From Helicobacter kayseriensis (GTDB lineage Bacteria > Campylobacterota > Campylobacteria > Campylobacterales > Helicobacteraceae), in the NCBI RefSeq assembly GCF_021300655.1, contig NZ_JAJTNB010000001.1, positions 133,770-197,769 on the forward strand: a stretch of DNA of 64,000 bases, in the 5' to 3' direction. Positions 49,361 to 54,394 of this stretch are shown here, piece after piece; position 1 is the first letter of the stretch; each line of letters opens with the position of its first letter. The position numbers and the translations under genes are program-made. The notes below the pieces were generated by a model that was not told where the DNA came from, did not search any database, and worked only from the letters and a program-made list of their open reading frames with translations.

Positions 49361-49651
49361 ATGCATTCACAAATTCAAAATATTATCTATAAAGCCCTTC
49401 AAAATCTTGCTGAAGAGCTCGAAAATGATGCACTTACAAATCCAAATGAAGAAACAAAAATCTATGGTGTAGATGGCGCTTTAGATTCCCTATCTTTAGT
49501 GAGCTTTATTGCAGATATTGAAGAAATGGTTGAAGAAGAACTTGGAGAAAATATCACTTTGGCCGATGAGAAAGCAATGAGCTCACAAAACTCTCCTTTC
49601 AAAAATGTTTCCTCTCTTACTCAATACATTCAAAATTTGATTCAAAAATAA
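49361..49651 (+). CDS. Acyl carrier protein
   Basis: 96 aa with the phosphopantetheine-attachment context GALDSLSLVSFIADIEE. Confidence 0.7.
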   Translation: MHSQIQNIIYKALQNLAEELENDALTNPNEETKIYGVDGALDSLSLVSFIADIEEMVEEELGENITLADEKAMSSQNSPFKNVSSLTQYIQNLIQK

Positions 49652-49655
49652 TCAA

Positions 49656-50384
49656 ATGAAAGTCTTTATTATCACTGGCACACGAAAAGGCATTGGAAAA
49701 GAGCTCGCTTTATATTTCCTGAAAGAAGGACACATTGTCTGTGGTTGCTCAAGAGGAAAAAGCAGTATCGATCACTCAAGCTATCATCATTTTGAGCTTG
49801 ATGTCAATAACGAAGAGCAAGTTATCAATATGGTCAAAACAATCAAAAAGCAATTTGGAAGGATTGATATTTTGCTCAATAATGCAGGAATCGCCTCAAT
49901 GAACCATATCCTACTTACTCCCTATCAAACCATGAAGAATGTTTTTTCAACAAATGTTTTTGGAACATTTCTTTTTATACGGGAAGTTGGAAAAATCATG
50001 AGTCAATCTGCACGAATACTCAAAAAACAAGGGGAAATCCCTCACTTCCGCATTGTAAATTTCTCAACAGTTGCTGTGCCTCTAAGACTTGAAGGGGAAG
50101 CGATCTATGCAAGTTCAAAATCCGCGATTGCCAATTTAACGCAAGTCGCAAGTTTTGAACTATCTGAGTTTGGAATCACTGTCAATGCAATTGGTCCAAC
50201 ACCAATCCCAACAGATCTTATTAAGAATGTTCCAAAACATAAAATTGATGCTCTACTACAACGACAAGCTATCAAGAGGTTTGGAACCTTTCAAGATTGC
50301 CTCAATGTAATTAAGTTTTTTATTGATGAGCGAAGCGATTTTGTTAGTGGGCAAATTATTTATCTTGGAGGTGTCAATGGCTAA
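49656..50384 (+). CDS. SDR family oxidoreductase (FabG-like ketoreductase)
   Basis: TGTRKGIGKELA glycine-rich motif, NNAG, and a YxxxK context (YASSKSAI). Confidence 0.8.
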   Translation: MKVFIITGTRKGIGKELALYFLKEGHIVCGCSRGKSSIDHSSYHHFELDVNNEEQVINMVKTIKKQFGRIDILLNNAGIASMNHILLTPYQTMKNVFSTNVFGTFLFIREVGKIMSQSARILKKQGEIPHFRIVNFSTVAVPLRLEGEAIYASSKSAIANLTQVASFELSEFGITVNAIGPTPIPTDLIKNVPKHKIDALLQRQAIKRFGTFQDCLNVIKFFIDERSDFVSGQIIYLGGVNG

Positions 50385-52417: not shown

Positions 52418-52793
52418 TCCCATCCATCATATTGGTTGCGCCACGCAAAGCATTGAAAAAGAGCTTCCTATTTTTTTAAAACTTGGTTTTAAAATAGAAG
52501 ATAGTTTCATCGATGAAGATCAGAAAGTGCGCGGAACTTTTATCACAAAAGATCAATATCGCCTTGAATTATTGGAGAATCTTGATCCTGATGGTCCTCT
52601 AACGCAATACCTTAAACAAAAAACAAAAATGTATCATATCGCTTACCAAAGCTCAAACCTTGAAGGTGATTTGGAAAAACTCAAAATGCGAGATATTCCT
52701 CTAGGGGGGGGGGGTGATAGTGAAACCAATCATGAAAGCAAACTACTTCAAAAGACTCTGTTTTATAATGATGAAAAATTATCTTCTGATTGA
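52401..52793 (+). CDS. VOC (glyoxalase/methylmalonyl-CoA epimerase-like) family protein with poly-G(10) near the 3' end
   Basis: PIHHIGCATQSIEKELPIFLKLGF...YHIAYQ are VOC-fold metal-binding contexts. The tract at 52705-52714 encodes LGGGGD. Confidence 0.55.
   Translation: MLTLNNPIHHIGCATQSIEKELPIFLKLGFKIEDSFIDEDQKVRGTFITKDQYRLELLENLDPDGPLTQYLKQKTKMYHIAYQSSNLEGDLEKLKMRDIPLGGGGDSETNHESKLLQKTLFYNDEKLSSD
52705..52714. repeat. Poly-G(10) inside the VOC-family gene
   Basis: Counted directly. Confidence 0.9.
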
Positions 52794-52807
52794 GTTGGTA
52801 GAAACGT

Positions 52808-54394
52808 ATGATTGATCTTTATTCAAAAAATCTAAAACGCTCGGATTTGCTTCATTTTCAAAATACCTGCGATGAATTAATTCATAAATCCATTACTATC
52901 AATATTCATCGTAATCATGCATTTGAGCCTGTTGGAAGCATCATCAATGCATTTTTATCCCAAAGTGGTTTAATCGCTAAATTTCAAATTGGACCATATG
53001 ATGATTCTTTGAGCTTTGATAATCTCCAAAAAAGTCATCTAGAAATCATCTGGGTTGATCTTTCTCGCTACAAAAACAATCCCTTAGAACACATATCAAA
53101 ACAAATCAAGTATCTCAAAACACTTACCACATCCCCAATTCTTCCTATTTTTATGGATATCCACTGCCGATTTAATCTTTCTCATTTGCAAGAAGATAAT
53201 GTTCTTTTTCTCTCTTCATTTATTCAACAAGAAGATTTAGATGACAAAAAGTCAAGCATTACTGGCACAAGACTTGGGAATAAGGCTTGTATCAAAATTG
53301 CACAATTTTTAGGACTTAGAGAAATCCCCTCATTGCTTCTTCCTTCACTCAAAGCAATTGTTCTTGATTTGGACAATACTCTTTATAGTGGAATACTTGG
53401 CGAAGATGGGATTGATAATCTTGTTTTAACTCAAGAACATAAAAAACTACAAGAAAAAATCTTAGATTATAAAAACAAAGGCTTTTTATTGGCTCTTGCC
53501 TCAAAAAATGAAGAGCAGCATGTTCAAGAAATGTTTCATAAACGTAAAGATTTTCCACTCCAATGGAAAGATTTCGATACAAAAGAAGTCAACTGGAATC
53601 CAAAAAGTCAAAATATTCAAAAGATTGCACAATTTTTCAATTTTGGACTTGATTCTCTCCTCTTTATTGATGACAATATCGCAGAAATTGAATCTGTCAA
53701 ATCCCTTAATATCAAAACAATTCTTGCCATTTCTCCAACAAAAGTGCTAGAAACACTAGAGCTCTTTCCTCAAATGCACAAAAAAGCAATTACCAATGAA
53801 GATATACTGCGTTCAGCAGACATTCAAGCAAATCAATTAAGACAACAACTCAGCAATCTCTCTCAAAAAGAATACTTTCAAAATTTGCAAATTTCACTTA
53901 TTTTCTCTATCGACAATCTTAACAACATTCAACGCATCACAGAACTTCTTAATAAAACCAATCAATTCATCTCCGGTTATACTCGCCCTACGCTAAATCA
54001 AGTTGAGGAATGGTTTAGAAATCCACATCTTTCAATTGCTACTATTGCAATGAGTGACAAGCTAAGTGATAGTGGAATTATTGCAATCTTTATAGGCGAA
54101 AAGATCAAGCATCAACTCGCATTGCGCGATCTTTGTATTAGCTGCAGAGCACTAGGAAGAAAACTCGAAGAAATCATGCTTTTCAAAGCTATTTCTCTTC
54201 TTAAAGAGAAGCTAGGAATTCTCTCACCGACTACAGATATCTACTTCAAAAAAGGAGAAAGAAATTCGCCCTTTTTGGATTTTCTGCAAAAACTTCCTCA
54301 ACACAGTGCCAGCCAAAATATATATACTACTATCGATGAAATAGTCAATACTGATGGTTTAAATATCAAGGAGGAGAAAAATGAAAGATTTTGA
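52808..54394 (+). CDS. FkbH-like HAD-IIIC family protein (glyceryl-ACP forming enzyme family)
   Basis: LKAIVLDLDNTLYSGILGEDGIDNLVLTQEHKKLQEKILDYKNKGFLLALASKNEE is the HAD-IIIC/FkbH domain signature (DxDxT...SKN). 528 aa with an N-terminal extension. Confidence 0.65.
   Translation: MIDLYSKNLKRSDLLHFQNTCDELIHKSITINIHRNHAFEPVGSIINAFLSQSGLIAKFQIGPYDDSLSFDNLQKSHLEIIWVDLSRYKNNPLEHISKQIKYLKTLTTSPILPIFMDIHCRFNLSHLQEDNVLFLSSFIQQEDLDDKKSSITGTRLGNKACIKIAQFLGLREIPSLLLPSLKAIVLDLDNTLYSGILGEDGIDNLVLTQEHKKLQEKILDYKNKGFLLALASKNEEQHVQEMFHKRKDFPLQWKDFDTKEVNWNPKSQNIQKIAQFFNFGLDSLLFIDDNIAEIESVKSLNIKTILAISPTKVLETLELFPQMHKKAITNEDILRSADIQANQLRQQLSNLSQKEYFQNLQISLIFSIDNLNNIQRITELLNKTNQFISGYTRPTLNQVEEWFRNPHLSIATIAMSDKLSDSGIIAIFIGEKIKHQLALRDLCISCRALGRKLEEIMLFKAISLLKEKLGILSPTTDIYFKKGERNSPFLDFLQKLPQHSASQNIYTTIDEIVNTDGLNIKEEKNERF

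Follow-up and report, generated by a model that had tools for sequence, protein, structure and literature searches.

A candidate FkbH-type route to glyceroyl-type sugar decoration in a phase-variable glycosylation island of Helicobacter kayseriensis

Described systems and how the locus compares

Nonulosonic acids on flagellin, capsule and lipopolysaccharide carry a variety of N-acyl groups, including glyceroyl, di-O-methylglyceroyl and hydroxybutyryl, and for most of these groups we know of no enzymes that make them. Here, we analyzed a run of genes from Helicobacter kayseriensis that encodes a protein of the FkbH family and occupies positions 49361-54394 of a 64-kb window (contig NZ_JAJTNB010000001.1, positions 133,770 to 197,769; all coordinates given below are those of this window). 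Our reading, to which we assign a probability of roughly 0.55, is that the region forms part of a phase-variable glycosylation island of the legionaminic acid (Leg) type with two independent acyl-donor modules. One of them, module G, would make an (O-methyl)glyceroyl group on an acyl carrier protein (ACP2), the other, module L, would supply a different acyl group, and transferases of the left-handed beta-helix (LbH) type would pass these groups to a Leg-type 4-amino precursor.

In Campylobacter jejuni NCTC 11168, the genes Cj1299-Cj1304 encode acpP2, a methyltransferase, a vicinal oxygen chelate (VOC) family ‘epimerase’, an fkbH-domain protein, fabH2 and acpP3. This locus and the one studied here are both phase-variable nonulosonate glycosylation loci with orthologous ACP2, VOC and FkbH genes, which follow each other in the same order and show 56% (ACP2 and Cj1299), 55% (VOC after repair of its reading frame and Cj1301) and 49% (FkbH and Cj1302) identity. 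C. jejuni differs in having a class I methyltransferase, a ketoacyl-ACP synthase III (KASIII), a second ACP, Cj1295 and Cj1296/7, and its sugar is pseudaminic acid (Pse) modified at N5, whereas the window encodes LegB and LegC, a TylF-type methyltransferase and LbH proteins resembling AntD. Furthermore, the VOC gene of the window contains a homopolymeric tract, unlike the C. jejuni VOC gene examined (L001; loci of our comparison are cited by L numbers).

Di-O-methylglyceroyl-Pse has been known from C. jejuni 11168 since 2009. On flagellin of this strain it is present as 7-acetamido-5-(2,3-di-O-methylglyceroyl)amino-pseudaminic acid, to which Cj1295 alone has been tied (PMC3068675). In a comparison of further strains, cj1302 was a pseudogene in strain 12664 and cj1301 was absent from strain 12661, and the flagella of both strains lacked all of the dimethylglyceric acid (DMGA-Pse) ions seen in 11168 (PMC7099621). 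The authors of that study draw no link between the loss of cj1302 or cj1301 and the loss of DMGA-Pse. The correlation fits the model proposed here and suggests an obligatory rather than an optional VOC step.

The FkbH domain itself is described from the FkbH/OzmB-type glyceryl-ACP synthases of methoxymalonyl-ACP and tetronate biosynthesis, which share with the window the HAD-IIIC motifs, an adjacent stand-alone ACP and, presumably, the Cys motif. In contrast to these systems, the module of the window has neither FkbK/FkbI-type oxidases nor a polyketide synthase (PKS), its FkbH protein bears an N-terminal domain of ~170 aa, and its partners are a VOC protein, methyltransferases and sugar aminotransferases/N-acyltransferases, so that the presumed product would go to an amino sugar and not to a polyketide.

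A precedent for carrier-protein chemistry in sugar decoration is found in the viosamine island of Pseudomonas syringae (vioA, vioM, vioS, vioB, vioR, acp). Like the locus studied here, it combines an aminotransferase, a methyltransferase and an LbH acyltransferase with a dedicated ACP and fatty-acid-type enzymes, and its product is an N-hydroxyacyl, O-methyl amino sugar on flagellin. It differs in using a KASIII and FabG, with no FkbH, VOC or ligase, and in its sugar, a dTDP-hexose instead of a nonulosonate. The ACP-linked route to N-(3-hydroxybutyryl)viosamine has been tested genetically for vioS, vioR, acp and vioB (PMC3927599), so the initial annotation went too far in calling such a route to glycan acyl decorations undescribed.

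AntD of the Bacillus anthrose pathway (PDB 3VBI-3VBP) aligns end to end with both LbH proteins of the window (E-values of 4e-44 for LbH1 and 8e-61 for LbH2). It reportedly moves a 3-hydroxy-3-methylbutyryl group from its CoA ester to dTDP-4-amino-4,6-dideoxyglucose, whereas the neighbouring genes in the window would argue for ACP-borne donors. In Vibrio cholerae O1, RfbK-RfbO (tetronate on perosamine) make an amino-sugar N-acyl group with ACP-like and AMP-ligase-like proteins and reductases; the reductase set and the product differ from those of the window, and FkbH is absent. LpxA and LpxD, the classic acyl-ACP-dependent LbH transferases, likewise operate without FkbH.

The ACP2-VOC-FkbH cassette

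The initial annotation described the run as an ACP, a FabG-like short-chain dehydrogenase/reductase (SDR), an acyl-AMP ligase, an SDR remnant, a second ACP, a VOC protein and an FkbH-like protein, and all seven elements were found on the plus strand where it had placed them. The second part of the run, together with a methyltransferase gene located upstream, comprises the following features:

52187-52417, plus strand: ACP2, carrier protein of module G and orthologue of Cj1299 (profile comparison with solved ACPs)
52401-52815, plus strand: VOC / methylmalonyl-CoA-epimerase-like gene, orthologue of Cj1301, out of frame, with the present open reading frame (ORF) ending at 52793 (Glyoxalase_4, E 6e-13)
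52704-52714, plus strand: G11 homopolymeric tract within the VOC gene, OFF at G11 and ON at G10 or G13
52808-54394, plus strand: FkbH-domain protein of 528 aa, orthologue of Cj1302 (TIGR01686; HAD-IIIC)
47365-48168, plus strand: TylF-like O-methyltransferase, probable start near 47464 (PF05711 TylF, E 4e-13)

The 528-aa protein had been predicted to be FkbH-like with an HAD-IIIC domain, and the profile search bears this out, with 326 bits on TIGR01686 (cut-off 146.65) and 84.6 bits on the HAD-IIIC model TIGR01681 (cut-off 35.75). An alpha/beta domain at the N terminus is followed by an HAD-IIIC phosphatase domain that lacks a cap and by a C-terminal domain of GNAT fold with an SCRALGR motif. 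Based on an alignment of 16 homologues (40-55% identity), the HAD-IIIC catalytic residues and all other motifs are intact: D187-x-D189-x-T191, S232-K233-N234, D288-D289 and S445-C446-R447-A-L-G-R451 are invariant. C446, within the invariant SCRALGR motif of the GNAT-fold domain, is the putative counterpart of the catalytic Cys of OzmB-type enzymes. Our search found no solved structure of a characterised relative. The N-terminal domain (residues 1-170, encoded at 52808-53320) contains invariant R35-N-H-x-F-E40 and Y64-D65 motifs, followed by a nearly invariant D66-S67, and is shared with the Bacteroides protein BF1531 (PDB 3SLR). A look-up of the exact sequence of the H. kayseriensis FkbH protein, aimed at comparing the lengths of the tract between assemblies, gave no record.

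A dedicated stand-alone ACP adjoins FkbH, with ACP2 immediately upstream. ACP2 passed no Pfam or NCBIfam cut-off; a profile built from it and four orthologues matches solved ACPs (2LML at 2e-5 and E. coli ACP at ~8e-3). The W-S-S33 motif is kept, and the pattern W-[DST]-S is present in more than 70 FkbH-linked ACPs. Thus, both carrier proteins of the run retain a modifiable Ser as expected from the initial annotation, ACP1 as Ser43 within LDSL and ACP2 within W-S-S.

The VOC protein remains below the equivalog cut-off for methylmalonyl-CoA epimerase (TIGR03081, 51.5 bits vs 115), and its best solved matches carry the label glyoxalase I. An alignment of nine orthologues shows four conserved His/Glu positions, namely the HH in HHIG, E in ELLE, H in YHIAY and E in LIELVE, which presumably correspond to the metal ligands (His, Glu/Gln, His, Glu) in the structures of methylmalonyl-CoA epimerase and glyoxalase I. 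We propose that the protein most likely epimerises its substrate at C2 via an enediolate, by analogy to the action of these two enzymes on thioesters. A natural fusion of FkbH and VOC exists as well (P0108).

At the present tract length of G11, the VOC protein lacks its 33 C-terminal residues, among them the Glu of LIELVE, i.e. the fourth conserved position. At G10 or G13, the gene would encode 137 aa, reading to ...LIELVETYD and ending at 52815 with an overlap of 8 nt with the FkbH gene. At 13 loci, a tract of 9-14 G was detected inside the VOC ORF or at its 3' edge, in ten of them just upstream of the conserved C-terminal strands. The carriers include H. cinaedi, H. saguini, H. marmotae, H. 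labetoulli and Helicobacter sp. MIT 11-5569, together with two Campylobacter species, one Helicobacteraceae metagenome-assembled genome (MAG) and one Gastranaerophilales MAG. One tract was ON and four were OFF among those with a readable frame, and in the nine-orthologue alignment the VOC genes from outside these Helicobacter, Campylobacter and Gastranaerophilales carriers have no tract. From its position and recurrence, we read the tract as a conserved phase switch of module G.

In order to place the cassette, the genomic context of homologues was examined together with a phmmer map covering 80 loci that an FkbH alignment had retrieved; neighbours were counted over 78 loci within a radius of 4 kb. 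An ACP was present at 71/78 loci, a VOC protein at 52/78, a methyltransferase of either type at 30/78 and a DegT aminotransferase at 24/78. The loci span Campylobacterota, Gastranaerophilales, Alpha- and Betaproteobacteria, Verrucomicrobiota, Actinomycetota, Bacillota and Acidobacteriota, and in soil and water lineages the gene order is FkbH, ACP, a 200-aa GNAT, VOC, methyltransferase and aminotransferase. Homologues of the TylF-like methyltransferase adjoin ACP-FkbH-VOC trios at eight loci (L004, L005, L006, L033, L043, L045, L062, L066). Since methyltransferases of this type flank the trio in several phyla, the TylF-like enzyme of the window is a likely member of module G and likely O-methylates glyceryl hydroxyls for it.

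Two variants of the gene neighbourhood were seen in the same survey. In the H. cinaedi group and others, a gene resembling MaoC dehydratases, either fused to or followed by a ~500-aa protein without family match, lies between VOC and FkbH (L003 8139-10000; L084 73-1455; L009; L012; L015; L064), which suggests a module variant to which a dehydration step has been added. Members of the aminoglycoside N-acetyltransferase family (PF02522, Cj1296/7-like) are neighbours of ACP cassettes in Campylobacter, Gastranaerophilales, Lysinibacillus and a Bacteroidales MAG (L001 7693-8478, L026, L045, L089 11414-12307), in three cases along with a Cj1295-like DUF4910 protein, and they may be acyl-ACP-dependent sugar N-acyltransferases.

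Taken together, the initial proposal of a glyceroyl or O-methylglyceroyl group built on an ACP stands as the best reading of the FkbH part of the run, plausible if unproven, and does not extend to the run as a whole. We favour (O-methyl)glyceroyl on a nonulosonate amine for this part because of the FkbH motifs, the ACP Ser, the LegC and acyltransferase flanks, the linkage of the trio to methyltransferase and DegT genes and the orthology to C. jejuni. The same architecture could, however, serve another chemistry, in which the FkbH clade loads a unit other than glycerate or the VOC protein makes a 2-hydroxyacyl (e.g. lactoyl) thioester, so that the decoration would not be of the glyceroyl type. 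The clade is just ~30-50% identical across phyla and has its extra N-terminal domain, the solved VOC matches are labelled glyoxalase I, and oxidases of the hydroxymalonyl type are not among the partners. We nevertheless regard this as unlikely: the HAD phosphatase and Cys motifs are invariant, as a route from a phospho-acyl donor needs, O-methyltransferases, which need free hydroxyls, are linked to the trio recurrently, and the C. jejuni orthologues track with a di-O-methylglyceroyl glycan.

Neighbouring cassettes, transferases and sugar genes

The first part of the run and the fragment that follows it contain these features:

49361-49651, plus strand: ACP1, carrier protein of module L, 96 aa (structure model, LDSL motif)
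49656-50384, plus strand: SDR1, FabG-like ketoreductase of module L (adh_short E 1e-37; adh_short_C2 E 1e-38)
50377-51723, plus strand: ANL (acyl-AMP-forming) ligase of module L (AMP-binding E 1e-31, and AMP-binding_C)
51733-52125, plus strand: pseudogene, C-terminal half of a K-type reductase (tblastn)

ACP1 had no Pfam or NCBIfam match in profile scans, gave only weak matches in a profile search of the PDB (best E 0.017), and reached a probability of 5% in a profile-profile comparison with ACP2. Its identity as a carrier protein comes from a structure model, since sequence searches had not settled it. The AlphaFold (AF2) model, built on 17 homologues, has a pLDDT of 88, and its top Foldseek matches are all carrier proteins (NE2163 ACP with a probability of 0.99, AcpM and DltC). 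Ser43, in an LDSL motif that is invariant across the 17 homologues, is placed at the start of helix 2. The model thus identifies ACP1 as a predicted carrier protein that has retained its phosphopantetheine Ser, and in the genomes compared its homologues are always found upstream of the SDR and the ligase.

SDR1 is FabG-like in fold only, scoring 125-129 bits against FabG equivalog cut-offs of ~296-298. It shows 60-79% identity to the module L SDRs of H. enhydrae, L087 and Aliarcobacter butzleri, compared to ~22% to K-type SDRs. The ligase starts at ATG 50377, not at TTG 50323, and overlaps the SDR stop codon; the resulting 448-aa protein is 100% identical to the NCBI protein of H. kayseriensis and has orthologues of 52-68% identity across Campylobacterota, Hippea and Hydrogenivirga. 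ACP1 and the 528-aa FkbH protein likewise match H. kayseriensis proteins at 100% identity. The ligase presumably loads an acid onto ACP1. The nearest solved structures, MenE and oxalyl-CoA synthetase (only ~1e-21), are too distant to name the substrate from them. Our guess for the acyl group is 3-hydroxybutyryl, because this group is common on Pse and Leg. Ligase and ACP1 were also considered as orthologues of Cj1307/Cj1308, and this was ruled out (the ligase is 21% identical to Cj1307, and the E-value is 0.008).

The fragment downstream of the ligase continues in frame from the ligase stop and is open to 52125. It covers residues ~121-250 of a 250-aa reductase, and the N-terminal Rossmann half is absent. 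The fragment is 49% identical to residues 121-250 of the K-type SDR of L087 (tblastn), 61-67% identical to four K-type SDRs over their last 84-97 aa, and ~22% identical to SDR1. Neither a KASIII nor a K-type ACP was found anywhere in the window. The fragment, which the initial annotation had counted as a part of the pathway, is a true pseudogene and the debris of a lost KASIII-ACP-SDR cassette. This cassette (module K) is a recurrent unit in our survey, and vioS/acp/vioR of P. syringae follow the same logic.

Across genomes, the units of module L keep similar sizes (ACP 94-100 aa, SDR ~235 aa, ANL ligase ~446 aa). In A. butzleri, the module follows Pse-type genes (a PseB/PseC-like dehydratase and aminotransferase, a cytidylyltransferase, NeuB and a GNAT), in Hippea maritima it stands beside flagellin and Pse-type genes, and it is also present in H. 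enhydrae and a Bacteroidales MAG; none of these four occurrences includes an FkbH. Module G, consisting of an ACP of ~76 aa, VOC and FkbH, exists without module L in C. jejuni, H. cinaedi and Helicobacter sp. MIT 11-5569; L004 is among the loci of this kind. On the metagenomic contig L087, modules L, G and K are consecutive after an aminotransferase, and the window contains module L (49361-51723), module G (52187-54394) and, of module K, just the reductase fragment. The treatment of the run as one system was not supported by this comparison, as the ACP-SDR-ligase and ACP-VOC-FkbH trios each occur alone elsewhere; judged from gene content, the run reads as two separable carrier-protein cassettes and the wreck of a third.

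In a joint pathway, the ligase and SDR would instead work with both ACPs, VOC and FkbH towards one acyl group of larger or hybrid type, such as glyceryl condensed or esterified with the ligase-loaded acid. The genes are contiguous, on the same strand and partly overlapping, the modules stand side by side in L087 too, and in tetronate biosynthesis an FkbH, a FabH-like enzyme and an ACP do cooperate. Each trio is, however, found alone elsewhere in an otherwise complete nonulosonate cluster, the window encodes no condensing enzyme (KASIII, ketosynthase or condensation domain), and in H. enhydrae each module has its own LbH downstream, all of which makes a joint product quite unlikely.

The genes flanking the two cassettes are as follows:

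46401-47414, plus strand: LegB-family NAD-dependent 4,6-dehydratase (TIGR04180, 496 bits vs cut-off 475; GDP_Man_Dehyd and Epimerase Pfam matches)
48165-49352, plus strand: LegC-family pyridoxal phosphate-dependent aminotransferase (TIGR04181, 505 bits vs cut-off 420; DegT_DnrJ_EryC1 E 3e-78)
54381-55049, plus strand: LbH1, AntD-like N-acyltransferase (AntD, 3VBI, E 4e-44 over residues 9-200), with a G11 tract at 54992-55002
55046-55660, plus strand: LbH2, AntD-like N-acyltransferase (AntD E 8e-61), with a G10 tract at 55642-55651
55688-56590, plus strand: sugar N-formyltransferase-like protein (Formyl_trans_N and Formyl_trans_C; like the ArnA formyltransferase domain, E 2e-40, under the cut-off)
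56574-57281, plus strand: GNAT, Acetyltransf_3, weakly PseH-like, with an in-frame C9 tract at 56896-56904

The sugar aminotransferase and the N-acyltransferases on either side of the run are present as initially described and can now be specified as LegC-family and, in the case of the two LbHs, as AntD-like. Downstream, the operon encodes a NeuB-family synthase (314 bits on the NeuB model, under the cut-off of 400), a PIG-L deacetylase, a GFO-type oxidoreductase and a cytidylyltransferase (CTP_transf_3). LegB and LegC above their cut-offs, with a NeuB-family synthase and a cytidylyltransferase in the same operon, are the combination by which we recognise a legionaminic-acid-type pathway. LegB would catalyse the first step towards the sugar that becomes acylated, and in the known legionaminic acid pathway the LegC product is next acted on by an N-acetyltransferase. 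The acyl cassettes and acyltransferases occupy the slot after LegC where this N-acetyltransferase would act, and because of this placement we infer that the acceptor is most likely the 4-amino group made by LegC on the nucleotide-sugar intermediate, later N7 of the nonulosonate. With LegB and LegC upstream and two AntD-like LbHs downstream, the target would therefore be the 4-amino precursor of a legionaminic-acid-type nonulosonate.

LbH1 and LbH2 are paralogues (61% identity), and their similarity to AntD is full-length over ~190 residues including the C-terminal helix; entry 3VBN is the AntD N-acyltransferase of Bacillus cereus (PMC6031040). The closest counterpart of LbH2 (68%) is the LbH located after the ligase module in H. 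enhydrae, and that of LbH1 (64%) is the H. enhydrae LbH located after module K. The two genes share a duplicated 3' segment encoding KEFLSSIKETMGGG with poly-G at its end (54940-55002 and 55590-55651). These poly-G tracts were rejected as on/off switches, as they lie just past the AntD-like region and alter a short tail only; their length might tune translational coupling, via the tail and the distance to the next start codon, rather than switch an enzyme off. The GNAT at 56574, considered as the module G transferase and counterpart of the GNAT in environmental FkbH operons, was dropped after phmmer gave no similarity. The C9 tract in the middle of this GNAT gene (56574-57281), in frame at present, is likely a true on/off switch for another N-acyl option, and the context of the formyltransferase-like gene is that of an alternative N-acyl group.

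Two further observations concern sugar modification downstream of the GNAT. An ATP-grasp enzyme and an HAD hydrolase (57308-58345) might add an amino-acyl type substituent as a fifth sugar-modification route. The PIG-L family deacetylase (60953-61636), which recurs in nonulosonate clusters bearing ACP cassettes (L084, L085, L088), could remove the GlcNAc-derived N-acetyl group and free N5 for re-acylation. The same deacetylation role has been proposed for Cj1295 in C. jejuni (PMC3068675).

The glycosylation island spans ~41.6 kb to the window end, starting after the ClpB stop at 41628, and the G+C content of the 64-kb window is ~35%. A minus-strand block with an HMGL-like gene, two CTP_transf_3 genes, a weak MptE/Maf-like match and a split family 2 glycosyltransferase (GT2) gene is followed by a single long plus-strand operon from 46401 to at least 63164. 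All seven G/C homopolymers of at least nine bases fall in 41631-56904, i.e. within the island, and the longest G/C run outside it is a C7:

Homopolymers, by position: C11 at 41631; C13 at 43494; C13 at 46045; G11 at 52704; G11 at 54992; G10 at 55642; C9 at 56896

This tract pattern is that of phase-variable surface-glycan loci in C. jejuni (PMC3068675). The GT2 gene (45212-46323, minus strand) is apparently broken at the C13 tract 46045-46057 into a 94-aa N-terminal fragment ending in ...NVGGGGR and a 253-aa ORF without family match, and is probably phase-OFF. The CTP_transf_3-like pair (43200-44177 and 42493-43203, minus strand), one member of which spans the C13 at 43494, adjoins the HMGL-like gene (41658-42581) and looks like a second sugar-activation set with it. 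The C11 tract separates the clpB stop from the HMGL-like ORF, whose 3' end faces it.

Considering the number of interrupted genes, the sub-cluster could also be a decaying, silent cassette that no longer feeds the glycan, leaving acetyl and formyl groups only. The reductase is a truncated pseudogene left without the KASIII and its ACP, the reading frame of the VOC gene is broken and the upstream GT2 gene is split as well at its C13 tract. However, the VOC frameshift sits in a tract that is conserved across species and seen in both states, which marks reversible phase variation, and no truncation or loss of an invariant residue affects ACP1, SDR1, the ligase, ACP2, FkbH or either LbH, so that we consider decay distinctly improbable. 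That the acyl-ACPs feed a lipid or small-molecule product instead of a sugar is scarcely credible: FkbH, ACP, ligase and SDR are typical parts of secondary metabolism, but the island holds no PKS, nonribosomal peptide synthetase or lipid gene, the cassettes lie between LegB/LegC and the AntD-like, formyl- and GNAT transferases, NeuB, PIG-L and cytidylyltransferases, and the linkage to DegT and NeuB recurs in other phyla.

Proposed pathway and its meaning

For the preferred reading, in which two independent cassettes supply acyl groups to a Leg-type sugar, we infer substrates, step order, the acceptor and the pairing of LbHs with modules from the gene identities, motifs, folds, synteny and tract states described above. 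In module G, the HAD domain of FkbH would take 1,3-bisphosphoglycerate and remove its 3-phosphate, and the glyceryl unit would be held on Cys446 of the GNAT-fold domain before its transfer to the phosphopantetheine arm of ACP2. The metal-dependent VOC protein would then act at C2 of the 2-hydroxyacyl thioester, the methyltransferase would O-methylate its hydroxyl(s), and an AntD-like LbH would move the (methyl)glyceroyl group to the LegC-made 4-amino group. In module L, the ligase would adenylate a short acid and load ACP1, the SDR would adjust the keto or hydroxy state, and a second LbH would transfer the product. Module K is lost apart from half a reductase. At G11 the VOC step is now switched off, and the glyceroyl-type decoration is probably abolished in the present phase state, because the C. 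jejuni strains without cj1301 or with a defective cj1302 are without DMGA-Pse.

Several points weigh against this pathway. The glycan-linked FkbH clade bears its extra N-terminal domain of ~170 aa, and the substrate of the clade is an assumption taken over from polyketide homologues, just as the role of the VOC protein is derived solely from family chemistry. The C. jejuni correlation consists of two strains that differ at other genes too, and the window contains no homologue of the Cj1300-type methyltransferase, Cj1295 or Cj1296. Many gut lineages place FkbH directly beside KASIII-ACP(-SDR), where cooperation would be possible. On the side of the transferases, AntD reportedly takes acyl-CoA and not acyl-ACP, and none of the transferases in the window is clearly dedicated to module G, as the LbH similarities point to module K and the ligase module; the absence of an assignable module G transferase is the main gap in the model. 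Finally, with VOC in the OFF state and one cassette already degraded, the module may be decaying in this genome.

The annotation of the genes, the large family to which FkbH belongs, the chemistry of FkbH and a genetic precedent for the ACP-linked N-acylation of a flagellin sugar are already known. In the literature searched, outside of which lay subscription journals, we found no description of an FkbH module for glycan acyl groups, of its link to the dimethylglyceroyl group of C. jejuni, of the three-cassette modularity or of the conserved VOC tract; concerning a link of FkbH to glycans, only a passing mention, in one paper, of cj1302 as a gene with an fkbH domain was found.

In a wider and more tentative reading, for which we see somewhat less than even odds, three interchangeable ACP cassettes, each with its own N-acyltransferase, would form a plug-in toolkit in Campylobacterota and many other phyla. 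Its FkbH cassette would divert 1,3-bisphosphoglycerate from glycolysis to the decoration of surface glycans and be the missing source of the di-O-methylglyceroyl group of C. jejuni, and VOC would act as a phase switch across genera. If true, this toolkit would widen the range of N-acyl groups on nonulosonic acids and other amino sugars, and on nonulosonic acids these groups shape antigenicity, phage recognition and colonisation. Should the ACP-VOC-FkbH trio be the source of di-O-methylglyceroyl-Pse, a 15-year gap would close. An enzyme type known from polyketides would take on a second role, in the decoration of glycans, hundreds of genome entries named ‘HAD-IIIC family phosphatase’ would gain a function, and the conserved VOC poly-G tract would give Helicobacter and Campylobacter one more defined switch for phase variation.

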